A stretch of 37,205 nt of DNA from a virus (taxonomy: Duplodnaviria > Heunggongvirae > Uroviricota > Caudoviricetes): positions 1 to 37,205 of IMG/VR virus record IMGVR_UViG_2711768063_000004. The stretch is one strand, 5' to 3'. Position numbers and translations under genes: made by a program. The notes under the pieces are model-generated. The model saw only the letters and a program-made list of their open reading frames with translations. It did no database searches and had not been told where the DNA came from. Below are positions 1 through 16,464 of the stretch, piece by piece (the first letter of the stretch is position 1; every line of letters starts with the position of its first letter).

Positions 1-1053
1 TTACGGGGTAATGCCAACCGCTGCCGCCACTTTGTCGCCACTTGGCAGCGTTGCCAGAGGATTGAAACGGAGCGCCGTTTCCAGATGATCCGGTGCCAGA
101 TGAGCGTAACGCATAGTCATTTTTATATCGTGATGTCCGAGGATTTTTTGCAAAGCAAGGATATTTCCACCCGACATCATGAAATGCGCCGCAAACGTAT
201 GGCGCAGAACGTGTGTCAGTTGACCGCGAGGGAGCACGATAGACGTTTTTTCCATCACGGATAAAAATTGAAAATAGCAGTCTGTGAAGAAATTGAACCC
301 ATCAAGCGTCATGATCTCTTCGTAAAGCTCTTTACTGATAGGGATGCTTCTGTTTTTCTTCCCCTTCGTTCTTACAAAGGTAATTCGGTATTTGGTCACC
401 TGTGAACGAGTAAGATTTACGGCTTCTCGCCAGCGTGCGCCTGTGCTTAAGCATATCTTAACTACCAGTGCCAGAATTGGGTCCTGACGTTTGCAATCAG
501 CCAGCAATTCAACAATCTGCTCATGGGTAAGCCATGCCATCTCTTTTTCTGCGATGGTGAATTTTCGCATGTTCTCCAGTGGGTTCGGATACGACCATTC
601 GCCCAGGCGGGATAGTTCGCTAAAAACACTACTTAGATAGCTTTGCTCCAGATTAATGGTGACCGGGCTTGCTCCTTTCTTCCATTTCTCGCTGAAGTAG
701 ATCTCTCCTGTCAGGCGTTTATCTCGATAGTGGGCAAACATTTTAGAGGTGAGATCTGTTGCAAGGGGATTGCCCAGAGCGTCAACCATCAACAGCAATT
801 TGTCACAGACATGCCGCCCAGCGGTTAGAGATTTACCATGTAGCTTGAACCATAGCTCAACCACGTCTTTCAGTGTTCGACGATCCACTGATTCACCAAG
901 CCAGGGCTTTGCTTCGGTTTCTTCCATCGTGTGGCGCTCAAAAGCCAGAGCTTCGCCTTTGGTGGCAAATTGTTTACGCACACGGCGTCCGCTACGTCCG
1001 GCGGGGTAACATTCGCAAAGCCATTTCCCTGTGGTGAGTTTTCGTACTGCCAT
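1..1053 (-). CDS. int: Tyrosine integrase (P2/186 Int family)
   Basis: 350 aa; C-terminal catalytic region has the R...HxxR...Y pattern (LRHTFAAHF...HHDIKMTMRYAHL). Sits at the prophage end, co-oriented with the repressor as in P2/186. Stop codon is at 1..3. Confidence 0.85.
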   Translation of the reverse strand: MAVRKLTTGKWLCECYPAGRSGRRVRKQFATKGEALAFERHTMEETEAKPWLGESVDRRTLKDVVELWFKLHGKSLTAGRHVCDKLLLMVDALGNPLATDLTSKMFAHYRDKRLTGEIYFSEKWKKGASPVTINLEQSYLSSVFSELSRLGEWSYPNPLENMRKFTIAEKEMAWLTHEQIVELLADCKRQDPILALVVKICLSTGARWREAVNLTRSQVTKYRITFVRTKGKKNRSIPISKELYEEIMTLDGFNFFTDCYFQFLSVMEKTSIVLPRGQLTHVLRHTFAAHFMMSGGNILALQKILGHHDIKMTMRYAHLAPDHLETALRFNPLATLPSGDKVAAAVGITP

Positions 1054-1131
1054 AAAAAATGCCCTCCAGTGGAGAGCATTTTTACTGTATATATAACCAG
1101 TGTCAATGTATGATGCTTAAGGTTACATACA

Positions 1132-1503
1132 TCATAAGTACCGATATGATTGCGGGGCCGTTATGTTATCACCTAATGAACTTAGATGAAGTGGTTGGTC
1201 ATAGATTTTTAGATTACCAATTTCTATAGCAAAGGCTTTTTCTTTGCTATGAAAATAAGAGTCAAAAAATTGTTTACTGATACCTGCGTATTGGCTTGTT
1301 TTTTCCCATACAATACTCGGCTTATCTTCTATAACATCTGCAATGTCAAATTCAGCAACAACTTTACCGACAGGCATTGTTGAATAAATAACCACAGATT
1401 TTACATCCGTTTTTTTAAAAATACCTTTCCTGAATTCAAACTTCTTCGTCCCATTAAGGATTTTTTCAACAAATTCAGGTTTTATTGACAATAATACTTT
1501 CAT
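1132..1503 (-). CDS. ASCH (PUA-like) domain protein, accessory
   Basis: 123 aa; N-terminus MKVLLSIKPEFVEKILNGTKKFEFRK is typical of ASCH domains. AT-rich; overlaps the upstream gene by 29 nt; same strand as cI and int. Confidence 0.6.
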   Translation of the reverse strand: MKVLLSIKPEFVEKILNGTKKFEFRKGIFKKTDVKSVVIYSTMPVGKVVAEFDIADVIEDKPSIVWEKTSQYAGISKQFFDSYFHSKEKAFAIEIGNLKIYDQPLHLSSLGDNITAPQSYRYL

Positions 1504-2554
1504 CTACAGCACCAAGTTTAATTATATCGTCAAATTGCTCATCGGTTAATTTAACAACACCCCAACGGTTTTTAGGATTTAAACCAATTTCTTTGATTAG
1601 TTTAGCACGGTTTATTCTTTTAGGTAAAGCTAGATTATATGTAAAACTAATAATGTAAGGGTATCTTTTTGTTTGATAGAATTTTTTTAATTCATTTTCA
1701 GAGAATACACTGTATCGTGTACAATACTGTATGAATTCTTTTTCACTATAAAAAGAATCAATATGTCTAATATCTTCAACTACACATAATGACGTTGCGA
1801 CAGAGCGATAATACGCTCTGTTTTCTTTGTCACTTGTTCTGTAAATAACTAAAATGTCATGTCTTTTTATTTTTTTTACGTCATGCATTCTGCATATATA
1901 TATTTTTCTAATGCTATTCGCATGAGATACATCCGTGATTATATCAGGGGACTCTGTGGTGAGTATCGAATCAGGAAACAGTTTTGTATGGAATTCAGGA
2001 TATATGGATAACAGATATTTGTTTTCATCGTTTCTATTATTTATATACGGATAATCAGACAAAATATCCCCTGTAAGATGATTTTTATTCATCTCTCTTA
2101 CTAAGACTTGTTCACTCCCATTAGCAGTTTGTTTTGTAGCAACATGAATAAAACCATAAATTTTGAATAGTCTAATTAAATAATCATGTTTTTCAAAAAC
2201 AGTCACATAGATATCATCTACTTTTTCTTTTAGTGCATGATCAAAAATCTTTTTGAGGAATCTTTGTCCTCGTAGAGTCCCCTTTGGGTTGAATTTAAAT
2301 GTGCCTATTTTTAGATGTTTAGCACGAGTCAAAGGTGGTATTACGTCGTCAATAATACCACGCTCAATTTTCAAGTATAAAAAACCATCAATTGTGTTGT
2401 CATCATTATATAAGACATAAGCTTTTTCTTCGATAGAATTACATTTTTTATTGAACCAATCGATAAATCCATGTTGATAGTCTTTTTTTAAGGAGTCAAA
2501 AAAAACATCGTTAAAATTAACTTCATTAAACTGAATGTGTTTTAATTTTTCCAT
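1475..2554 (-). CDS. Putative GNAT-like acetyltransferase N-domain fused to an ASCH-like C-domain, accessory
   Basis: 359 aa. N-half shows a GNAT-like pattern (IDGFLYLKIE...KIGTFKF...LRGQRFLKKIFDHA...IYVTVF...YGF). C-half restarts with an ASCH-like motif (KYLLSIYPEFHTKLF...RHDILVIYRT). Domain calls are by eye only. Confidence 0.5.
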   Translation of the reverse strand: MEKLKHIQFNEVNFNDVFFDSLKKDYQHGFIDWFNKKCNSIEEKAYVLYNDDNTIDGFLYLKIERGIIDDVIPPLTRAKHLKIGTFKFNPKGTLRGQRFLKKIFDHALKEKVDDIYVTVFEKHDYLIRLFKIYGFIHVATKQTANGSEQVLVREMNKNHLTGDILSDYPYINNRNDENKYLLSIYPEFHTKLFPDSILTTESPDIITDVSHANSIRKIYICRMHDVKKIKRHDILVIYRTSDKENRAYYRSVATSLCVVEDIRHIDSFYSEKEFIQYCTRYSVFSENELKKFYQTKRYPYIISFTYNLALPKRINRAKLIKEIGLNPKNRWGVVKLTDEQFDDIIKLGAVDESIIVNKT

Positions 2555-3687
2555 TTTTTCACCAGTGCAATAAAGTTGGATAATTTTTGTGGTTTAATAA
2601 AGTGAGCGGCAATGTAAGCTACAATAAATGCAATGGTGCAAATTAGATAAATGTCTTTATGCACACCATCTGTTGGAATAAATTTCATTATGTATGCTAT
2701 GGCTGCAGCATAGAACATATATGTAAATATTTTACTAATTTTTGATTTAGTAGTCTTGAACTTCACTACTACAGAGAAGTCACCTAGCCGTGCGCCATCA
2801 TCCTTTTTAGCTTTCCAGTGGTAAATCATAGGATCGTTCTTACCAAAATTGACATTATTTGAAAAGTATTTTTTCCATGTCTCTGATTCAAGAATACGAC
2901 AACCTTGATAGCTTGAACCTGATGCCGATGCTTCGTCAACCATATCTCGTATAACGAAAAAATGATATTTGCTTGGAGTGCAAGAGGCGCTGGCCAGTGT
3001 GGTTGCGACTTCGTTTGGCAAATTTCTTTGTTCGTTAATTCTGAAATCTATAATATCAGAACGTTCAATATTGCTTTTTAAGAATAAATCTTTGGGATAG
3101 AATGTTTTAACAATTGCTTCAACATCAGATTCATTTAGGTTAATTCTGAATCTGATGTAGTAATTGCAATCATTGCAATTATTGCAATTATTGCAATTAT
3201 TGCAATTAGACAAACAATCCTGCAGATGGAAAAATACATATGTCCCATCATTCCTCTTTCTCAATGTGATTCTTTTGTCGAATGCCCCCCCTTGAAAATC
3301 AAGTTTTGTATTAACTATTAGTTTACCTTTTCGTGTTAAATTTAATAATAAGTGTTTCTCGTTTATTGAGTCTTTATTTATGACGTATTCATTAAAAACC
3401 GCGGTGATCAGTTCTTTGCTGCTATCTAGGTTCGTGCTTAAATCAATGAAGTCATCTTTTTCTTTTACAAACGGTAAAAATAAACAGATTGCACCCTGTT
3501 CTGAAATTTCATTATTTTGGGGGCGAGAAAATGATATGCCAAAATCTAGATGATAGCATTTTTGGGATGTGATATTCCAAAAGTTGATGTGTAGTTCGTT
3601 TATAAAATCTGCTTGAGTCTCATTATAATCCTCTCCTGGGCCTTTAGCGTAGTTTCGACATCCCCAAATAGCAAAACTTCTAGACAT
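2542..3687 (-). CDS. Membrane-anchored hypothetical protein with Cys-x-x repeat, accessory
   Basis: 381 aa; two hydrophobic helices at the C-terminus (IFTYMFYAAAIAYIMKF, IYLICTIAFIVAYIAAHFI); internal CNNCNNCNNCNDCN encoded by a 9-bp tandem repeat; AT-rich; starts 31 bp downstream of the cI stop. Confidence 0.55.
   Translation of the reverse strand: MSRSFAIWGCRNYAKGPGEDYNETQADFINELHINFWNITSQKCYHLDFGISFSRPQNNEISEQGAICLFLPFVKEKDDFIDLSTNLDSSKELITAVFNEYVINKDSINEKHLLLNLTRKGKLIVNTKLDFQGGAFDKRITLRKRNDGTYVFFHLQDCLSNCNNCNNCNNCNDCNYYIRFRINLNESDVEAIVKTFYPKDLFLKSNIERSDIIDFRINEQRNLPNEVATTLASASCTPSKYHFFVIRDMVDEASASGSSYQGCRILESETWKKYFSNNVNFGKNDPMIYHWKAKKDDGARLGDFSVVVKFKTTKSKISKIFTYMFYAAAIAYIMKFIPTDGVHKDIYLICTIAFIVAYIAAHFIKPQKLSNFIALVKKWKN
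3163..3207. repeat. Five tandem copies of 9-bp unit ATTGCAAT(T/C) inside the CDS
   Basis: attgcaatc then attgcaatt x4, read directly. ATTGCAAT is itself an 8-bp palindrome. In-frame (3 codons per unit), encoding a Cys-Asn-Asn repeat on the minus strand. Confidence 0.9.
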
Positions 3688-3718: not shown

Positions 3719-4669
3719 TTATATTATAGTCATTAGGTTGAACTGGCATTTTGCAACCGGTTTGAGTTCATTAATTGCACAGTCAAAAGTAATATTTGAG
3801 TTTGAGCTCGTTACTCTTACTTTACCTACCGGTATTCTTATTACCTCGCGAACACTGATTTTTCCTTCAATTTCAACAAACCACAATCCATCGCTAATTT
3901 CGTCAAATTTCCCCTCAGCTAAGTATATCCTGCTGCCATCAAATATTAACATTGGATCTTTAATCGACTTAGGTACAAAGGACTTATCAAAAATGTAGTT
4001 ACCCTTCCTTTCGAGTGCACCATCGGCAAGCACGTACTTGTTTATGCACACAATGTTTTCATTTTGTGAACTTTTATTAAGTCCTTGCCCATCAACAAGC
4101 CATTTCAATGAGAATCCAGTTTCAAGGGCACACTGTATTATCCAATCAGCAGGGAATGAGTCACGCATATAGCGTGTAGCTAATGTACTTTTTGATATAC
4201 CAAGATGATCTGCCAGTGCTTGACGAGTTTTAAAGCCATAAGCCTTAACTATCCGTTCTATTGCCGCTTTTCCTCCCTGATTGAAATCGACTTGATGATC
4301 ATTATGAAAATTAAAGGAAGGTATATGATTGTCACTTTCAACGTCATCTCGCTGGTCGTCTTCGTTGTCTCCATTTGGAACAGTTGAGAGTATTTCTTCT
4401 GCCGCATCAGAACCAAACGCCAGCCATTCCAAAGATGCTCCTGTTTCCATTGAGCATATAACAACCCAATCAGCAGGAAATGTATCGCGAGCATATCTAT
4501 TGGCCATCGTACTTTGTGAAATACCAAGATGGTTACAGAACGCTTGGCGTGACTTGAAGCCATAAGCTTTGAGTATTCGCTCAATGACTTTCTGTCCCCC
4601 ACGATTCTGCATAACAATGGCTTTCGCATCCTCTTTGATATGGCGAAATGTGAATTTTTGAGTTGACAT
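3719..4669 (-). CDS. cI: 186 CI-type immunity repressor with duplicated N-terminal DNA-binding domain
   Basis: 316 aa. Two paralogous N-terminal modules (ERILKAYGFKSRQAFCNHLGISQSTMANRYARDTFPADWVVICSMETGASLEWL and ERIVKAYGFKTRQALADHLGISKSTLATRYMRDSFPADWIIQCALETGFSLKWL), then a C-terminal region with the 186 CI-like motif SDGLWFVEIEG. Divergent from the apl/cox-like gene. Confidence 0.75.
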   Translation of the reverse strand: MSTQKFTFRHIKEDAKAIVMQNRGGQKVIERILKAYGFKSRQAFCNHLGISQSTMANRYARDTFPADWVVICSMETGASLEWLAFGSDAAEEILSTVPNGDNEDDQRDDVESDNHIPSFNFHNDHQVDFNQGGKAAIERIVKAYGFKTRQALADHLGISKSTLATRYMRDSFPADWIIQCALETGFSLKWLVDGQGLNKSSQNENIVCINKYVLADGALERKGNYIFDKSFVPKSIKDPMLIFDGSRIYLAEGKFDEISDGLWFVEIEGKISVREVIRIPVGKVRVTSSNSNITFDCAINELKPVAKCQFNLMTII

Positions 4670-6812: not shown

Positions 6813-7666
6813 GCACCATCCTGAAATGGGCGGGAAATAAAACCGCCATTATGTCCGAACTGAAAAAACACCTTCCTGCTGGCCCGCGACTGGTTGAACC
6901 TTTCGCGGGTTCCTGTGCTGTGATGATGGCGACGGATTACCCCAGCTATCTGGTTGCTGATATTAATCCTGATTTAATCAACCTCTATAAAAAGATTGCC
7001 GCTGATTGTGAATCGTTTATATCTCGTGCCAGAGCTTTATTTGAGGAAGCAAACAGGGAGGTGGCTTATTACAACATAAGGCAGGAGTTTAACTGCTCAA
7101 CTGAAATTACTGACTTCATGAAAGCAGTATATTTCCTGTATCTCAATCGTCACGGTTACCGTGGGTTATGTCGCTATAACAAGAGCGGGCATTTCAACAT
7201 TCCCTACGGTAATTATAAAAATCCGTATTTCCCTGAAAAAGAAATTCGCGTATTTGCAGAGAAAGCCCAGCGAGCAACGTTTATCTGCGCCAGCTTTGAT
7301 GAAACGCTGGCGATGCTGCAGTTGGGGGATGTGGTGTATTGCGATCCGCCTTATGACGGTACGTTTTCCGGCTATCACACTGACGGCTTCACTGAAGATG
7401 ACCAGTATCACCTGGCATCTGTTCTTGAATATCGATCATCAGAAGGTCATCCAGTCATTGTTTCTAACAGTGACACATCCCTGATCCGTTCGCTGTATCG
7501 AAATTTCACTCACCACTACATCAAGGCAAAACGCAGCATCGGCGTGTCGGCTGGCGAGAGTAAATCTGCAACAGAAATCATTGCTGTTTCCGGGGCGCGC
7601 TGCTGGGTGGGATTTGATCCTTCGTGTGGCGTGGATAGTTCTGCTGTGTACGAGGTGCGTGTATGA
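6809..7666 (+). CDS. dam: DNA adenine (N6) methyltransferase, Dam family
   Basis: N-terminus LKWAGNK...LVEPFAGS and catalytic DPPY motif (VYCDPPYDG) match E. coli Dam; start overlaps the upstream stop; GGAGG ribosome-binding site. Confidence 0.8.
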
Positions 7667-10077
7667 GTCATGACGATATGAGCAACTCTAGCGGCTTTAA
7701 CGAGGCCGCTGCAGCATTTTCATGGAACGGCCCGAAAAAGGCCATTAACCCTTATCTGGACCCGGCGGAAGTTGCGCCGGAGTCTGCACTTTCAAACCTG
7801 ATCACTCTGTACGCTGCCGATAATGAGCAGGAACAGCTGCGCCGCGATGCACTGAGTGAGCAGGTCTGGGAGCGTTATTTCTTTAATGAATCTCGTGATC
7901 CTGTCCAGCGCGAAATGGAGCAGGATAAGCTCATTAGCCGGGCAAAGCTGGCGCATGAACAGCAGCGTTTTAACCCGGACATGGTCATTCTGGCGGACGT
8001 CAGCGCCCAGCCCACCCATATTAGCAAGCCGCTGATGCAACGTATCGAATACTTCAGCAGCCTGGGCAGGCCAAAGGCTTATTCCCGCTATTTGCGTGAG
8101 ACGATTAAGCCATGTCTGGAGCGACTGGATTGTGTACGTGACAGTCAGCTGTCTGCTTCTTTCCGTTTTATGGCAAGCCATCAAGGGCTGGAGGGCCTGC
8201 TGATCCTGCCTGAAATGAGTCAGGATCAGGTGAAACGCCTGTCCACCCTGGTAGCTGCGCATATGAGCATGTGCCTTGATGCAGCTTGTGGCGATTTGTA
8301 TGCCACTGATGACGTTAAGCCAGAAGAAATCCGCAAGACATGGGAAAAGGTGGCGGCGGAAACCCTGCGTCTGGATGTCATCCCACCTGCGTTTGAGCAA
8401 CTCCGTCGGAAAAGAAACCGCCGTAAACCCGTGCCCTATGAACTCATTCCGGGTTCGCTGGCGCGTATGTTGTGCGCCGACTGGTGGTATCGGAAATTAT
8501 GGAAAATGCGTTGCGAATGGCGGGAAGAGCAGTTGCGTGCTGTCTGCCTGGTCAGCAAAAAAGCATCTCCCTATGTCAGCTATGAAGCCGTGATGCATAA
8601 ACGTGAGCAGCGCCGTAAGTCGCTGGAGTTTTTCCGTTCTCATGAACTGGTGAACGAAGACGGCGAAACGCTGGACATGGAGGATGTGGTAAACGCCAGC
8701 AGCAGCAACCCTGCGCATCGCCGCAATGAGATGATGGCCTGTGTTAAAGGTCTGGAGCTTATCGCGGAAATGCGCGGTGACTGCGCCGTTTTCTACACTA
8801 TCACCTGTCCGTCACGTTTCCATTCCACGCTCAACAACGGCAGACCCAACCCGACCTGGACAAATGCGACGGTAAGACAAAGCAGCGATTATCTGGTCGG
8901 CATGTTTGCTGCATTTCGTAAGGCAATGCATAAAACCGGGTTGCGCTGGTATGGCGTGCGGGTGGCTGAGCCGCACCATGACGGTACTGTGCACTGGCAT
9001 CTCATGTGCTTCATGCGTAAAAAAGACCGCCGCGCCATCACTGCATTACTGCGTAAGTTTGCCATCCGTGTAGACCGCGAGGAGCTGGGCAACAACACGG
9101 GGCCACGCTTTAAGTCTGAGCTGATTAACCCGCGCAAAGGAACACCGACAAGCTACATCGCGAAATACATCAGTAAGAACATTGACGGGCGTGGTCTGGC
9201 TGGCGAGATCAGCAAGGAAACGGGTAAATCCCTGCGTGATAACGCCGAATACGTTAATGCCTGGGCGTCTCTGCATCGTGTTCAGCAGTTCCGCTTCTTT
9301 GGTATTCCGGGACGTCAGGCTTACCGTGAACTTCGCTTGCTGGCTGGTCAGGCGGCAAGGCAACAGGGTGACAAAAAAGCAGGTGCGCCAATACTGGATG
9401 ACCCGCGCCTTGACGCCATCCTGGCTGCTGCTGATGCTGGTTGTTTTGCCACCTACATCATGAAGCAGGGCGGCGTACTGGTTCCCCGTAAATATCACCT
9501 TATCAGAACCGCTTATGAAATCAACGAAGAGCCGACCGCCTATGGCGATCACGGCATTCGTATTTATGGCATCTGGTCACCCATTGCAGAGGGCAAGATC
9601 TGCACTCATGCAGTGAAGTGGAAAATGGTTCGTAAGGCCGTTGACGTTCAGGAGGCGGTAGCCGACCAGAGCGCTTGCGCCCCTTGGACTCGTGGCAATA
9701 ACTGTCCCCTTGCTGAAAATTTGAACCAACAAGGGAAAGACAAATCAGCTGATGGGGATACTAGGACGGACATTACCCGCATGGATGACAAGGAGTTGCA
9801 CGATTACCTGCACAGTATGAGCAAAAAAGAGCGCCGGGAACTGGCTGCAAGGTTACGCCTGGTGAAACCGAAACGGCGTAAAGACTACAAACAGCGAATT
9901 ACAGACCATCAGCGACAGCAGCTCGTCTATGAACTGAAGTCCAGAGGATTTAATGGCAGCGAGAAAGAGGTCGATTTACTCCTTCGCGGCGGCAGTATTC
10001 CGTCAGGAGCAGGCCTGCGTATCTTCTATCGGAACCAGCGTTTGCAGGAAGATGATAAGTGGCGAAACCTGTATTAA
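7663..10077 (+). CDS. A: Replication initiation endonuclease, P2 gpA family (rolling-circle HUH nickase)
   Basis: 804 aa; HUH-type motif [13 protein letters not shown] and a tyrosine pair in YIAKYISK; last large early gene as in P2/186. Confidence 0.8.
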
Positions 10078-10169
10078 TTACGCGGGTTAACAATTCGTGC
10101 TCTTAATAATACCAGGCATATCAGGCTAATGAACGTAAAAAAACGTTTTACATCAGTAAGATTATTATA

Positions 10170-10189
10170 TACTGTAAATATAAACAGTG
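10170..10189. promoter_or_regulatory. LexA (SOS) box
   Basis: TACTGTAAATATAAACAGTG matches CTGT-N8-ACAG, about 40 bp upstream of the 10231 start; overlaps a TATACT -10-like hexamer. Confidence 0.7.
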
Positions 10190-10230
10190 GTTATGTATAC
10201 AGTATTGCTTGTGGTGTCATAGGAGGAAAG

Positions 10231-10419
10231 ATGCAGGACTATTTTTTGGAGTCTTTGAAGCTCCAGCGCATTGATTTTTTTCTTAAGCTTGTAGCGGCTA
10301 GTGAGTGTAGTGATGAAGAGAAGGGGCTGGCTTTGCAGTGGGTTTCTGAACTGACAGATGAACTCATGGCAAAAATCAGAACCCACGAATACAACCGCTC
10401 AATGGATGTCATCAGCTGA
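10231..10419 (+). CDS. Small hypothetical protein, first gene of the SOS-controlled operon (possible Tum-like antirepressor part)
   Basis: 62 aa; AGGAGG ribosome-binding site at 10221..10226; immediately downstream of the LexA box. Confidence 0.5.
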   Translation: MQDYFLESLKLQRIDFFLKLVAASECSDEEKGLALQWVSELTDELMAKIRTHEYNRSMDVIS

Positions 10420-10429
10420 GGTGACCTTT

Positions 10430-10663
10430 ATGCGCATTGAAATAATGATCGATAAAGAGCAGAAGATTAGCCAGTCTACCCTGGACGCCCTTGAATCCGA
10501 GCTTTACCGCAATCTGCGCCCCCTGTATCCCAAAACGGTAATTCGCATCCGCAAAGGTAGCTCTAACGGTGTGGAACTGACCGGACTGCAACTGGACGAA
10601 GAAAGAAAACAAGTGATGAAGATTATGCAGAAGGTGTGGGAAGACGACAGCTGGCTGCATTAA
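10430..10663 (+). CDS. DinI-family protein (186 Tum C-domain-like)
   Basis: 77 aa; MRIEIMIDKEQKIS...LDALESEL...VRIRKGSSNGVEL...VMKIMQKVWEDDSWL follows the DinI pattern as I recall it (MRIE...AL..EL...V...WE..D.W). Confidence 0.7.
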   Translation: MRIEIMIDKEQKISQSTLDALESELYRNLRPLYPKTVIRIRKGSSNGVELTGLQLDEERKQVMKIMQKVWEDDSWLH

Positions 10664-10822
10664 GAAAAGTTGCTGGCGTCTGAACTTGGTTCTGGCGTCA
10701 GCAAGGTTGAACAACGAGTACAGTGAGGCGTTAGGTGTGGCGTTTATTTGATGAGTGAACGCCCGTTCTGCGACAGGTTCGGAGATTAAGGTTGAAACTA
10801 CGGGCAAAATACCATCTTTTTC

Positions 10823-11248
10823 CTACTTAATTGAGTCCAGTAACAAGTTACAGTTACTCTCATTGTAGAGAGAACGAGCAATTAGTGTTACCTGCTTTCC
10901 ATTCATTCCCGGCTTATCCCATAACACAGCTTCTTGCGACGCCACAAATTCAGCATAATCAATTATGCGTTGTTCGTGATCTGGTTCCTCATAGCCAAAG
11001 TATGAGAGCGCATCGTTGTAAGCGTGGTAAGCTGCTTTCTGTAATATCTTGATATCGGCTGTAGGTACTTGCTCCGTGTAGCTAGGATCTAATTGTGTGC
11101 TACTGCCATAGAATGCACATGAAAGGTAAGATATTGATTTCTGTTGAGCTTTAGTTCCTTTCTCATAGTTTTTAGCTGTTACCGCCTGAACTGGGACGCT
11201 AACAAAGCTTGCAACCAGAATTAAAATTAATACGTAAAAGCTTTTCAT
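10823..11248 (-). CDS. Secreted/periplasmic hypothetical protein (moron at the tin/old position)
   Basis: 141 aa with an N-terminal signal peptide (MKSFYVLILILVASFVSVPVQA then VTA); alone on the minus strand between the Tum/DinI module and the cos-like site; AT-rich. Confidence 0.55.
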   Translation of the reverse strand: MKSFYVLILILVASFVSVPVQAVTAKNYEKGTKAQQKSISYLSCAFYGSSTQLDPSYTEQVPTADIKILQKAAYHAYNDALSYFGYEEPDHEQRIIDYAEFVASQEAVLWDKPGMNGKQVTLIARSLYNESNCNLLLDSIK

Positions 11249-11522
11249 TTTGACCTCAGCCGAAACGTTAGAGAGACTATCGAAATTTGTAAAACCCGTG
11301 GCGATTCAGTTTGAGATCCTCCCCCTTACATGATTTTTAATCAAATATATGCTTTTGTAAGCATACCTGTTAACCGAATTATTCATTTTTAGAGATCTTC
11401 CTACATACTGATTATGCCCGCTGAGGAGTTCACCTTGCGTAAAGTCCGATTCGCTTTACTCGTCTGTGCATGTCTATGCTGCATGAGATTGCATGATCGT
11501 TTGAGGATCGTTTTTGCTAAGG

Positions 11523-11546
11523 CCCGCCAGAACTGGCGGGCTTTTG
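11523..11546 (+). terminator. Rho-independent terminator-like hairpin
   Basis: Perfect 9-bp stem gcccgccag / ctggcgggc with loop aa, followed by TTTT. Confidence 0.55.
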
Positions 11547-11589
11547 CGTTGATCATGCACCTGCATGAAAACCACTACATAAAGCGGGC

Positions 11590-11608
11590 AGGCGTGGCGG
11601 GGATACGA
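11590..11608. other. Candidate cos (cohesive end) site
   Basis: ggcgtggcggggatacgag: the first 13 nt match the GGCG(T/A)GGCGGGGA start of the 19-nt cohesive ends I recall for 186/P2. Position (after the early region, before Q) fits. Recalled from memory, not verified. Confidence 0.4.
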
Positions 11609-11723
11609 GCGCGCGTAAACCAAGTAGTATGTATCATCTAACTTTTACGAACAAGGTGTCCAAAATCTACGATAAATAGGTTAGACTTGTAGTACTTACA
11701 GTAATAATGCAAAAGGAAATAGC

Positions 11724-12419
11724 ATGAATCAGGTTCATGAGTCACATCAAATTAATCTTTTCACAACCAATGAAGAAATATCGCCTAGTCCTGCTATAAT
11801 TTTTCCAGTTCTACAGGAGTTAAGCGGATTTAGCCTCATCCCAACATTTGGACAGGAAGTAAATGCTTTATCTGGTGAGATGAAACAGATATTGATTATG
11901 ACAAATCCAGAGCAAACTTATCGTATTGAATTTGCAAGCCATGCAATCGTTATAAATGCTATGTCTACAAATCATGATGAATTTGTTGAGAAATCTGTAA
12001 ATGTTATCAGTGCAATGTTAAAGATATTTCCCAATAAGAAATTTAATAGAATTGCATTATTAAATGCACAGATTTTTACTGCTTCTTTGGATAAATATCA
12101 ACAGTTGTATGATAAATTATTCACATACAATGAAGTTTCTCCTTTTGAGTGGGATAACAGAATTGCGCTTCGTAAAAATATTGAATTTAATAATGAGGCA
12201 ATAAATAGCATCAATGCTATCAGTCGCAAAGAAGTTGCTGTTATGAATCATAATTCAGGCAAGCCATTTGATGCGATAATGTTTGAAATCGACTCTAATA
12301 CGTTGCCAACAAATACCGATTATAGATTTGATTTTAATCAGGCGATTCAAGTGTTGCGTAATTTGAATGATAATAACAGAAATTCACTGAGTGTACTGCG
12401 TCGTTATATTGAGTTATAG
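11724..12419 (+). CDS. Hypothetical protein, gene 1 of cos-proximal accessory cassette
   Basis: 231 aa, AT-rich, no recognisable motif or P-loop; AAGGAAA ribosome-binding site. Confidence 0.6.
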   Translation: MNQVHESHQINLFTTNEEISPSPAIIFPVLQELSGFSLIPTFGQEVNALSGEMKQILIMTNPEQTYRIEFASHAIVINAMSTNHDEFVEKSVNVISAMLKIFPNKKFNRIALLNAQIFTASLDKYQQLYDKLFTYNEVSPFEWDNRIALRKNIEFNNEAINSINAISRKEVAVMNHNSGKPFDAIMFEIDSNTLPTNTDYRFDFNQAIQVLRNLNDNNRNSLSVLRRYIEL

Positions 12420-12427
12420 GAACTATT

Positions 12428-13075
12428 ATGGCAGGTTATAGCGATTATATATTTAATATAGCGGCAAAGGTTATCAGCAATGCTGTGCCTATTAATGAGT
12501 TTAATGTAATAACTAATCGTTTTTTTAACAATCTCCATGATGAATTTAAAACGTCGCGTTTTCATGTGCATGATTCAGCCTCAAGTAATATGATTGCTGA
12601 GTCTGGTAACGTTGGAAGGATTAATTCACAAAGTAGTGAGATAGCCTTCGATATACAAGTGCAGCGTTGTTTAAAAAACGCGTTGCTATATCTTAAGTCT
12701 GAAAACTATATTGAAGGCGAGATAACTAAAACTCAAATTTATCTTGAATCTTTGTCTGAAAAAAACAAGTCATTATTTTTAGAAGTCTTTCAACGTGTCT
12801 GGGTTTCAATCTATTACTCACCAGAGTATCTTCGAAATTTTTTATACATAGCCGCATCTATGGACTATGAATTGATGAAGGATCGCGCAGATGTCCTTAT
12901 ATTAGGATGTTCTGCACATGAAGATGTTTTAGTTCAGGAGGCAGCTATTAGGGCTTTCGAATCTTGGGAAAATCCAGAGCATGCTTCACATTTGCGTGCA
13001 ATGAGAAAGTTTAATGAAAAATGGATTGAAGATTATAGACAAAGTACTATAAATTTTTTGGAGAGTCTAAAATGA
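12428..13075 (+). CDS. Hypothetical protein, gene 2 of cos-proximal accessory cassette
   Basis: 215 aa, starts 8 bp after gene 1; no recognisable motif. Confidence 0.6.
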   Translation: MAGYSDYIFNIAAKVISNAVPINEFNVITNRFFNNLHDEFKTSRFHVHDSASSNMIAESGNVGRINSQSSEIAFDIQVQRCLKNALLYLKSENYIEGEITKTQIYLESLSEKNKSLFLEVFQRVWVSIYYSPEYLRNFLYIAASMDYELMKDRADVLILGCSAHEDVLVQEAAIRAFESWENPEHASHLRAMRKFNEKWIEDYRQSTINFLESLK

Positions 13076-13587
13076 CATTCCTATTAAGGAAGTTTTCATA
13101 CCCAAAATGGGAGAAAAACAAAGGATTATCTCCAGATGAGTTTTCAGCTGATTCAATTACTGGCTGTACGCGCACAACTGCGAATAAGCTTTCAGTTTGG
13201 AGATCAGAAACCACTGATTTTAAATCTGATTATGTAGAAAAACTTATTGTTGCTTTAGCTACGACGATGCCGTCACCTGCTACTATAGACCTTGTTTGGT
13301 TGAAAGAAGAATGGTTTTTTGAACATGGAATTACATTGGAAGATAATCCAGGTGATACTAAATATGAAAGTGTGAATAATCTTCATAGCGACATTGCAAA
13401 TCTAAATCATAGGCGTCTAGCTATGGTAGGTTCACATATGCTTGAACAATTAGAGGGGGCAGGTAATTATCTCAGGGTTAGTAAAAGAGAACTGATTTCA
13501 CTTGTGGTTAAGTGGATGGAAAAAGAAGGTGAGTTTACTATAGAGGATTTGGAGGAAAAATGGCAGGAACAGTTGAATAAATTATAA
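13072..13587 (+). CDS. Hypothetical protein, gene 3 of cos-proximal accessory cassette
   Basis: 171 aa; ATGA start/stop overlap with gene 2 suggests translational coupling; no recognisable motif. Confidence 0.6.
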   Translation: MTFLLRKFSYPKWEKNKGLSPDEFSADSITGCTRTTANKLSVWRSETTDFKSDYVEKLIVALATTMPSPATIDLVWLKEEWFFEHGITLEDNPGDTKYESVNNLHSDIANLNHRRLAMVGSHMLEQLEGAGNYLRVSKRELISLVVKWMEKEGEFTIEDLEEKWQEQLNKL

Positions 13588-13666: not shown

Positions 13667-14701
13667 CTATGGTGTTAATTCATAGCTTCTAAAATTAATT
13701 ACTTCTTTAGCACACCATTTGTTTAGCTCTTTCATTTGTTCTTGTAAAGGAAGTAGTTCGTTTCTAACAAAAACCTTACTCGCCTTCTCCACATCCCCAA
13801 ACCCCCCAACATTATTCGGCATGATCCCCATCATCTGCGGCGGCACGCGGTGTGCCGCCATCATGTCATCGCGACTAACATTTTTGATATTCAAAAACTC
13901 ATCCTTCGCCGCGACTTCTGACAGAGGAATAATCTGAAGGCCGTCTTTTTTGCCGTTAGGCGAGTACATAAACAGGTTGCGGAAGTTGCCAGGGCCTTTG
14001 GCGCTTTTCATCGCATTGCGGAGGTTGTTCACATCCTCCTGGTTCTGCGCGGCATCGGTCATGTACATGATGAAGCCTGCATGGCTGCCGTTAATGTAAT
14101 ACTTCCGGCGGAACAGCGTGGCGGACTCGTTGAGCAGGGCTGACGGAATGGCAGAAAGATAACCTGGTAGGCCGTAGATCTCCTGGTTGATGTCAGGTTC
14201 CATCAGATGAAAAATGCTGCCTTTCGTGAACTGATACGGCTGGGTTGTCATACCGTATTGCACAAACCAGTAGGTATCCAGGTCTAACCCGCGTCGGGTG
14301 TATTTTGCCAGAGCAGGCTCAAGGGCGATAACTTCACCGAAGCGGTTCGTGCGTTTCTCCAGGTAGGCGTTACCAAATACCAGATAGTCCTGCACAAAAC
14401 GTGAAAAAGCCTGCTGGCTGAGCAGCGGGTGAGGGATGTAGGTACTGGTCAGAATGTTGCATTTCACCGCAATTGGTGAGCTGTGATGCACGGCGGCGCG
14501 GAAGGTTCGTGCCAGTCCGTCAAAGCTGACGGGCGGCTCATACCAGCGATCCATCTGTACGCATTCCACATAGTCCAGCAGTTCACGGCGGTCCAGAACA
14601 GGAACGGGATCGCCAAAGCTGAATGCTTCGGCTGAAGTTTGGCTTTTATGCTTGAGCTGATTCGTCGCCGCAGCGCGGTTTTTCTTACTCTTTCCCATCA
14701 A
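13667..14701 (-). CDS. Q: Portal protein (P2 gpQ family)
   Basis: 344 aa, the P2 gpQ length as I recall it; precedes the large terminase on the same strand. Confidence 0.8.
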   Translation of the reverse strand: MMGKSKKNRAAATNQLKHKSQTSAEAFSFGDPVPVLDRRELLDYVECVQMDRWYEPPVSFDGLARTFRAAVHHSSPIAVKCNILTSTYIPHPLLSQQAFSRFVQDYLVFGNAYLEKRTNRFGEVIALEPALAKYTRRGLDLDTYWFVQYGMTTQPYQFTKGSIFHLMEPDINQEIYGLPGYLSAIPSALLNESATLFRRKYYINGSHAGFIMYMTDAAQNQEDVNNLRNAMKSAKGPGNFRNLFMYSPNGKKDGLQIIPLSEVAAKDEFLNIKNVSRDDMMAAHRVPPQMMGIMPNNVGGFGDVEKASKVFVRNELLPLQEQMKELNKWCAKEVINFRSYELTP

Positions 14702-16464
14702 AAAATCTCCACAATATTGCTGGTATTGGCGGACTCGCCCTGCAGCGGTTCATTAAACAGTGCGTGCATTGTTGCCCAGGCCAGATCGGCGTGGCTGGCT
14801 TCTTCGCTGCGGCTGGCTTCATAGGTCGGGCGGTTGCCGCTGGCAGTGGTGGCGCGACGGATTGCCATAAAGGACTGCGCTATGTCGGTGTGCCCTGCGT
14901 CAAACTCCAGGCGGCGGTGGCTAATAATGTCGTAGGCCTTGAGTACCAGGGCGTTTTTAACGTTGGGGTTGTAGACAAACTCCCGGACGGCAGGAAAAAA
15001 CGCTTTCACGTTCTCGTAAACCCCGTGACCGACGCCGGTTGAGTCGATACCGATGTATGTCACGTTGTACTGTTCGGTCAGTTTTTTGATGGCGTCAGCC
15101 TGGGCGCGGAAGTCCATCCCGCGCCACTGGTGACGTTCAAGAATGCGAAACTTACCGCCTGGCACGGCTGGCGGTGCCACCACCACGCATCCGGCGCTGT
15201 CGCCGTTCTGCGTACCTTTTGCCGGGTCATAACCGATCCACACTTCGCGCCAGCCAAACGGGCGCAGGGCCAGTGCATGAAAGTCGCTCCAGACTTCCCA
15301 ACTGTCCACCATGCACGCCTGCAGCTCGCTGAGCGGGAACACGGACGCGAGATCGTCCACAAACTCGCACATCAGCAGGTTCTGGTATTCGTCCGGGCTG
15401 TACTCCATGCGCAACTGATCGAGGTCGAAAAGGTTACATCCGCCGCGCACTGCATCTTCCACGGTGACTATCTGGCGGTATTGCCCGTCTGCGCACAGCA
15501 GGCCGGGGGCCAGATTGCTGTGGGACAGGTCGATGTCCACCTTATCGGCTTTGTTGCGCCCACGGTTGAACAGCGCACCAGACCAGAACGGATAAGCACT
15601 GTGTGTCAGGCTGGATGGCGTGGAAAAATAGGTTTGTCGCCATTTTTTGTGAATAGCCATACCGGAAGCCACTTTGCGCAGCTCCTGGAATTTCGGTATC
15701 CAGAAATATTCATCCAGATACAGGTTGCCGTGATAACTCTGGGCAGTGCGGGCATTGGTGCCGAGGAAGTAAAGCGTGGCCCCGTTAGGAAGCACCATCG
15801 GATCGCCTTTCAGCTCCACCTCGACTTCTTTGGCGAAGTCGATGATGTATTGCTTAAAGACGTGAGCCTGTGCCTTACTGGCAGAAAGGAAAATCTGGTT
15901 ACGTCCGGTAAGCAGGGCGTCAATCAGGGCTTCACGGGCAAAGTAAAAGGTCGCGCCGATCTGGCGTGACTTCAGCAGATTACGGATGCGGTTGGTTTTT
16001 CCAGCTTCCCACCAGTGGCGCTGGTAGTTGAACATGGAGGAATGGAAGATTTCTTCCAGCTTCTCAATCTGTTCATCGGTGAAAACATTCTTTTCCGGCT
16101 GACGGCGCGGCCCTTTGTTGCGGTTGGCGACGTTAGGGTTTAAGTCGGCTTCGTTGCCGCCATTGTTAAACTTGCCGATCCGCGCGTGGCGCTCCGACTG
16201 GCGTGCCAGCAGGTCAATTTCTTTGAAATCTTTCCCTTCTTTGTGCTCCTTCATAATGAGCTGGCAATAGCGTGCGGCGGTGGTGAGCTGCATCTGATCC
16301 AGCGGCCCATAGTCACCCCACTTGTCGCGTTTTTTCCAGCTGTGAACGGTTGCAACTTTCTCGCCCAGCATTTCAGCAATGCGGGCTACGCGGTATCCCT
16401 GAAAGTACAGCAGCATGGCCTGCCGACGGGGATCGAGATCTGCGGGTGTCAGTGTGGTGTTCAT
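14698..16464 (-). CDS. P: Terminase large (ATPase) subunit (P2 gpP family)
   Basis: 588 aa; overlaps the Q start; divergent from O as in P2. Confidence 0.8.
   Translation of the reverse strand: MNTTLTPADLDPRRQAMLLYFQGYRVARIAEMLGEKVATVHSWKKRDKWGDYGPLDQMQLTTAARYCQLIMKEHKEGKDFKEIDLLARQSERHARIGKFNNGGNEADLNPNVANRNKGPRRQPEKNVFTDEQIEKLEEIFHSSMFNYQRHWWEAGKTNRIRNLLKSRQIGATFYFAREALIDALLTGRNQIFLSASKAQAHVFKQYIIDFAKEVEVELKGDPMVLPNGATLYFLGTNARTAQSYHGNLYLDEYFWIPKFQELRKVASGMAIHKKWRQTYFSTPSSLTHSAYPFWSGALFNRGRNKADKVDIDLSHSNLAPGLLCADGQYRQIVTVEDAVRGGCNLFDLDQLRMEYSPDEYQNLLMCEFVDDLASVFPLSELQACMVDSWEVWSDFHALALRPFGWREVWIGYDPAKGTQNGDSAGCVVVAPPAVPGGKFRILERHQWRGMDFRAQADAIKKLTEQYNVTYIGIDSTGVGHGVYENVKAFFPAVREFVYNPNVKNALVLKAYDIISHRRLEFDAGHTDIAQSFMAIRRATTASGNRPTYEASRSEEASHADLAWATMHALFNEPLQGESANTSNIVEIF

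Follow-up and report, generated by a model that had tools for sequence, protein, structure and literature searches.

A two-gene tumA-tumB module as the probable SOS induction operon of a 186/Fels-2-type prophage

The stretch of DNA analysed here, termed the window, is 37,205 nucleotides in length (IMG/VR virus record IMGVR_UViG_2711768063_000004) and represents a 186/Fels-2-type prophage of the P2 family. Just downstream of its replication gene A (7663-10077, plus strand), and on the same strand, lie two small genes behind a double LexA operator, and this locus is very probably the SOS induction operon of the prophage in its two-gene form, tumA-tumB (Table 1). The corresponding module occupies the same position in 186, Fels-2 and PSP3, and the early region around it runs in the order int, cargo genes, CI (of the 186 family), cox/apl, cII, fil, DUF5347, Dam methylase and gene A. 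The module was found in 1125 of 5426 complete E. coli genomes and in 66 phage records.

The split arrangement of tumA and tumB is already known and very common. In the PSP3 record, tumA is described as 'similar to 5' end 186 tum; UV induction of prophage' and tumB as 'similar to dinI and 3' end of 186 tum', while the Fels-2 record describes STM2726.1 as similar to 'TumB' of PSP3. In 2011, Lemire et al. indicated that Tum resembles a fusion of an antirepressor to DinI (PMC3121763), and further noted that the tum region is split in two in Fels-2 and PSP3, with the antirepressor encoded by the upstream gene (PMC3121763). According to that article, the latter assignment goes back to a personal communication by G. 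Christie that Bunny, Liu and Roth 2002 cite (PMC3121763), and the title under which their study is listed there names Fels-2 as the cause of lexA-null lethality in Salmonella (PMC3121763); the communication concerns PSP3 TumA, which is only ~22% identical to the first ORF of the window. The sequence-only reading of this DNA had left undecided which of the two ORFs carries antirepressor activity, and that question is largely answered, in favour of the upstream gene, by the PSP3 annotation of tumA together with the account of Lemire et al. A literature search on TumA and TumB by name returned unrelated papers only. Since the arrangement had already been described for Fels-2 and PSP3, the finding is real but ordinary; what is added to the earlier reading is the double operator, the existence of loci that carry tumA without a DinI gene, and the pairing of near-identical TumA proteins with CI repressors that share just their HTH domain.

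Table 1. Positions of the features of the tum module, and of the CI and int genes, in the window
Feature	Position	Strand	Details
int	1-1053	-	ATG at 1053
186-family CI, 316 aa, presumed TumA target	3719-4669	-	Pfam PF07022 (two stretches) and PF16452
Putative -35 of the tum promoter (186 p95 equivalent), TTTACA	10147-10152	+	sequence reading
Putative -10 of the tum promoter, TACTGT	10170-10175	+	overlaps left arm of LexA box 1
LexA box 1, TACTGTAAATATAAACAGTG	10170-10189		3 mismatches to 20-bp consensus
LexA box 2, CAGTGGTTATGTATACAGTA	10185-10204		overlaps box 1
tumA (ORF1), 62 aa, predicted CI antirepressor	10231-10419	+	ATG 10231, stop 10419
tumB (ORF2), 77 aa, DinI-family	10430-10663	+	ATG 10430, stop 10663
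Interrupted hairpin after tumB	10670-10704	+	RNA fold; 15 bp (11-bp outer and 4-bp inner stem)

The tumA and tumB reading frames

The tumA gene encodes an acidic protein (pI 4.6), for which an AF2 model (pLDDT 90.5) predicts a helical hairpin formed by helices at residues 2-23 and 28-61. Pairwise BLASTP comparison of that protein with 186 Tum gave no match, and the view that the two are unrelated, drawn from that null result, was overturned by comparisons at the level of protein families. The tumA product matched phrog_698 (E 3.6e-38) as well as phrog_8554 and phrog_1993, and the same three families were matched by the first 70 residues of 186 Tum (5.9e-6, 3.4e-12 and 1.5e-23, respectively); an hhalign comparison of the two families gave a probability of 96.6% (E 5e-10), with residues 1-42 aligned in each. 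The two subfamilies are bridged by intermediates from ESSI2_ev015, ESSI-2, vB_YenM_324, vB_YenM_201.16 and ENT90. On these sequence grounds, TumA is distantly homologous to the first 42 residues of 186 Tum. A sequence search of the PDB gave no match to TumA, the Tum N-terminal domain being without a structure there, and a Foldseek search of the PDB with the AF2 model returned generic helical hairpins, none of them at E <= 0.001.

The product of the first ORF corresponds to no family model in Pfam or NCBIfam and is named 'hypothetical protein' in RefSeq, which are the observations that would be expected if it were a chance ORF or a leader, and if the sole real gene of the locus were an ordinary SOS-regulated DinI moron. 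That reading is so improbable as to be close to negligible, and is already refuted by the pattern of conservation: the first ORF displays a dN/dS of ~0.09 at a dS of ~0.9 and the second a dN/dS of ~0.06 (estimates for both ORFs extending to a dS of up to ~1), and purifying selection on both of them indicates that both are real genes. The same conclusion is reinforced by a strong ribosome-binding site (AGGAGG, 10221-10226), by the 482 homologues of tumA found in databases (with a typical length of 62 aa), by its confident AF2 model, and by the homology to phrog_698 and to the Tum N-terminal domain.

An extended 96-aa form of tumA, beginning at an ATG at 10129, was considered and rejected, as the promoter and both LexA boxes would then fall inside the gene; the 62-aa form is preferred because of its strong ribosome-binding site and its fit to the length of the family. 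Database entries for tumA are often 84-109 aa in length, from upstream starts that take in the operator, and some records spuriously name the gene 'levan regulatory protein'. The tumA-like CDS of ENT90 (659-898) has an annotated start that lies upstream of its own LexA box and was probably miscalled, the likely true start being at 701.

The assignment of the second ORF is more direct. Preceded by the ribosome-binding site GAGGTG (10418-10423) and separated from tumA by a gap of 10 bp and a change of reading frame, it matches the Pfam DinI family PF06183 with an E value of 6.6e-23 and a score of 81.3 bits (cut-off 24.2) across profile positions 1-63 of 63, so that the earlier description of a 77-aa DinI-family ORF after a 10-bp gap is upheld. 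It also matches positions 71-148 of the 151 in phrog_189 and is 41-42% identical to the C-terminal half of 186 Tum (residues 71-145). Its score against the NCBIfam DinI equivalog model NF007893 is 42.7 bits, below the cut-off of 111, which argues that TumB is a phage DinI-like paralogue rather than the host DinI. The sequence-only reading had called the whole a two-gene DinI-like module, a description that holds for the second ORF and fails for the first, which is not DinI-like; its central proposal, of an SOS antirepressor similar to 186 Tum and split into two ORFs, is supported by the hhalign result, by the shared PHROG families, by the 41% identity of the second ORF to Tum residues 71-145, by the placement of the module after gene A and by the 186-type CI of the prophage. 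Alignment to Tum and to DinI, which had been suggested as a check on that proposal, pairs the first ORF with the N-terminal part of Tum (by hhalign) and the second with both the C-terminal part and PF06183.

Comparison with individual phages places the module among several related arrangements. In Fels-2 (the Salmonella LT2 prophage, of genus Felsduovirus), STM2728 is 98% identical to TumA and STM2726.1 is 100% identical to TumB, and the window and Fels-2 agree in the 10-bp gap, in having a double LexA operator and in the placement of the module after gene A; the two differ in their CI repressors (~210 aa in Fels-2, against the double-HTH CI of the window) and downstream of tumB, where Fels-2 continues with a same-strand ORF of 243 aa and the window with a cargo gene on the opposite strand. 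In PSP3 (Eganvirus PsP3), tum is likewise split in two behind a LexA box and after gene A, with a TumB 78% identical to that of the window and a long CI (287 aa) to which the window CI aligns over ~90% of its length. PSP3 TumA, however, belongs to the 186-type subfamily; its gene is preceded by one LexA box rather than a double one, with 20 bp between box and start codon, and PSP3 tumA and tumB share a frame in which they are separated by a stop and one codon. Phage 186 shares with the window a LexA-repressed promoter after gene A, homologous N- and C-terminal parts and a CI of the same family, but its Tum is one polypeptide of 146 aa, in which the parts are joined by a linker of ~25 aa, whereas the window encodes two proteins; in 186, furthermore, the DinI part is also made on its own from an internal start, the operator has only one LexA box, and orf97 comes next in the operon.

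A comparable operon logic has been described in the lambdoid phages Gifsy-1/2/3 (with antirepressors GfoA and GftA), which resemble the window in possessing a LexA-controlled operon that encodes a DinI homologue and a small antirepressor of a non-cleavable repressor (PMC3121763). In those operons, dinI comes first, the reverse of the gene order in the window (PMC3121763), and their antirepressors and repressors were presented as distinct from Tum and 186 CI (PMC3121763).

Additional loci illuminate which of the two genes is indispensable. In ESSI2_ev015, ESSI-2, ENT90, vB_YenM_324 and vB_YenM_201.16, which span five other Peduoviridae genera, a tumA homologue and a LexA box are present and a DinI gene is absent, and the existence of such loci argues that TumA is the indispensable part. 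The same loci suggest a fusion as the origin of 186 Tum, and suggest that the two-gene form does not represent the decay of a single gene. They also bear upon the proposal that the DinI-like TumB is itself the effector of induction (for example, by way of RecA activity on the repressor), with tumA being accessory or unrelated. That DinI-family proteins bind RecA filaments (PMC3121763), and that, according to the 186 record, translation from an internal GTG yields a DinI-only truncated Tum which 'modulates SOS induction', are both compatible with such a role; the retention of the LexA box in loci that lack DinI, the assignment of UV induction to tumA in PSP3, and the description of 186 Tum as inactivating CI by reversible sequestration, in which induction is not described as RecA-mediated (PMC7708051), all argue to the contrary, and we regard it as highly improbable that TumB rather than TumA is the effector.

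Operator and promoter of the module

The near-consensus SOS box that had been noted ~40 bp upstream of the 62-aa ORF is present as LexA box 1, the end of which lies 41 bp upstream of the tumA ATG, and its CTGT-N8-ACAG core is perfect. Two matches of this quality to the LexA consensus were found in the window and none in any of 100 shuffles, which places the box far beyond chance expectation. A LexA box was also retained 5' of the tumA homologue in 12 of the 12 loci examined, which represent ~10 genera of Peduoviridae.

The operator is not, as the earlier reading had it, a single SOS box: LexA box 2 overlaps the first, such that the 16-mer cores of the two share 1 bp, an arrangement corresponding to the double overlapping operator of the colicin type. 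The second box has a left arm without CTG and is, for that reason, a poor LexA site by itself. The double box is retained in Fels-2, SopEphi, ST437-OXA245phi4.1 and MLG42, although the flanks diverge, while the 186, PSP3, ESSI, ENT90 and Yersinia types display a single LexA box located 18-35 bp from the start codon.

The resemblance to bacteriocin operators extends to the sequence itself. Positions 10164-10210 are 85-88% identical to regions located ~40 bp upstream of the genes for colicin N, cloacin and a pore-forming colicin on small Col plasmids, with BLAST E values of 4e-5 to 1e-4 against 7.3 Gb. The shared tract of ~43 bp (ACTGTA-ATA-AA-CAGTGGTTAT-T-TACAGTAT) contains the two overlapping SOS boxes, and the window and the colicin and cloacin promoters further share a GTCA-AG-GG motif ahead of the start codon. 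The colicin leaders contain an extra T-rich stretch of ~16 nt, and the promoters in question drive bacteriocins rather than an antirepressor. Matches to the tum operator were found in 147 plasmid records (48 from Yersinia; 114 mobilizable), of which the colicin N, cloacin and pore-former colicin loci were the three inspected; the Yersinia matches may represent another bacteriocin promoter. At colicin operators, two LexA dimers are bound (PMC2994835), and cooperative binding of two dimers, with tight repression and late derepression, has been reported for those operators only (PMC2994835). By analogy, two LexA dimers probably occupy the two overlapping boxes of the tum operator.

The promoter of the operon can be placed by reference to 186, in which the record annotates the -10 element of p95 as TACTGT, the first six bases of the LexA site. 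The layout in the window is the same, and the 17-bp spacing between TTTACA and TACTGT reproduces the geometry of the -35 and -10 elements of p95; the two hexamers listed in Table 1 are, by that comparison, the putative tum promoter. The -10 hexamer is weak, and a scan for consensus promoters did not call the tum promoter. At the other end of the operon, the hairpin that follows tumB is without a U-run, and a terminator scan called no canonical terminator after that gene; the hairpin possibly marks the end of the operon.

The CI repressor and the proposed induction pathway

The window encodes a CI repressor that matches the structure of 186 CI (2fjr) with an E value of 2.7e-28 and consists of a tandem pair of HTH domains, with 65% identity between the two copies, followed by a 186 CI C-terminal domain. 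Its identity to Fels-2 CI is 34-43% overall, with 64% in the HTH domain and only 16% in the C-terminal one. PSP3 and Klebsiella P2-like phages also encode long CI proteins, which can be aligned to most of the length of the window CI. Across phages with TumA proteins that are 98-100% identical, the CI repressors are only 43-57% identical to that of the window, so that near-identical TumA proteins are paired with CI repressors alike only in their HTH domain. This pattern suggests, at the level of sequence comparison, that TumA is directed at the conserved HTH part of CI, and that it may be active across immunity types.

The same pattern can be read in a different manner. If TumA were blind to the divergent double-HTH CI, the locus would be an SOS-regulated operon that does not act as an induction switch in this prophage, and would represent either an SOS-modulating moron or a factor that acts in trans on other prophages. 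The mosaic relation of the immunity region to tum, the low conservation of the CI C-terminal domain relative to Fels-2, and the crosstalk of antirepressors in trans that has been documented for Gifsy and Fels-1 (PMC3121763) would all fit that reading; and because the window CI has diverged from that of Fels-2, its inactivation by TumA is an assumption. The 64% identity of the HTH domains nevertheless implies that a conserved target surface exists, and Klebsiella phages that possess the same double-HTH type of CI carry a tumA that is 100% identical to that of the window. Moreover, the position of the module, its operator and the purifying selection upon it have been kept across many immunity types, as would be expected if it worked with all of them. 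We therefore consider the absence of an induction switch at this locus to be improbable and favour the operation of tumA-tumB as the induction operon of its own prophage.

A mechanism for that operon can be proposed by analogy to work on 186, PSP3 and Fels-2. In phage 186, the LexA-regulated promoter p95 drives expression of Tum, which sequesters CI reversibly (PMC7708051). In a lysogen of the present prophage, LexA bound to the double operator would cover the promoter and keep tumA-tumB silent; upon DNA damage, activated RecA would promote the self-cleavage of LexA, and the two genes would be transcribed. TumA would then bind the 186-family CI and reversibly block its binding to the operator, and the resulting loss of CI function would derepress the early lytic promoter and lead to prophage induction. 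TumB would represent a stand-alone DinI-like protein, the counterpart of both the C-terminal half of 186 Tum and the truncated Tum that is translated from the internal start. It would not inactivate CI, and would instead tune induction, most likely by way of RecA filaments; TumB is predicted to modulate these filaments and the SOS response.

The int promoter, neighbouring genes and wider meaning

A second near-consensus LexA box (TACTGTATATATAACCAGTG, 1083-1102, minus strand) lies upstream of int, where it fills the spacer of a promoter-like TTGACA-17-AAAAAT arrangement (score 10/12). It is followed by a strong hairpin with a U-run (1055-1083; -16.2 kcal/mol, z -4.7), within which the ribosome-binding site of int is located and which stops immediately short of the int ATG. 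The TTGA, LexA box and hairpin before int are kept in 4LV2017, KP12, vB_EcoM-813R9 and ESSI2_ev129, in which the upstream genes differ, and they are absent in 186 and Fels-2, where cI abuts int. This organization suggests that int may be insulated from upstream transcription and may possess its own SOS-controlled promoter. A literature search for LexA-controlled int genes in P2-like phages found no report.

Between cI and int, two cargo genes (1132-2554, minus strand) match PDC-M11, a candidate defence system in PADLOC: a 359-aa protein matches PDC-M11A (E 4.6e-139) and a 123-aa ASCH-domain protein matches PDC-M11B (E 1.9e-49). The adjoining ORF of 381 aa (2542-3687) has no match among the families of Pfam, PHROGs, NCBIfam and PADLOC. 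A further, variable cargo region (10823-13587) is located between tumB and a group of minus-strand ORFs (13667-16464) that are, judging by size and location, presumably the portal and terminase genes; at the corresponding location, 186 and Fels-2 carry orf97-like genes. It begins with an opposite-strand gene (10823-11248) for a 141-aa protein of phrog_7437, the N-terminus of which reads like a signal peptide, and also contains three same-strand ORFs of 231, 215 and 171 aa, none of them assigned to a Pfam, NCBIfam or PADLOC family; the 231-aa product matches phrog_19817, of unknown function.

Taken jointly, the proposals that a Fels-2-type TumA of broad specificity is aimed at the HTH domain of CI, that the LexA cassette has been exchanged with Col plasmids, and that int is under SOS control form a combination that is tentative, and somewhat unlikely to hold in all of its parts. 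If TumA does possess such broad specificity, one SOS-controlled tumA would induce several heteroimmune P2-like prophages, a form of cross-induction; if the double LexA cassette behaves like that of the colicins, induction would require a high threshold of damage.

The value of these observations as a discovery is small, the module being annotated in PSP3, near-unchanged in Fels-2 and discussed in the literature. Their value lies instead in annotation, as the tumA present in roughly a fifth of complete E. coli genomes is labelled 'hypothetical protein'. The double operator, the association of one TumA with divergent CI repressors and the LexA-box promoter of int provide modest leads on induction thresholds and on crosstalk between prophages, and once tumA is recognised, the P2-family prophages that carry it are predicted to be SOS-inducible, including by antibiotics.
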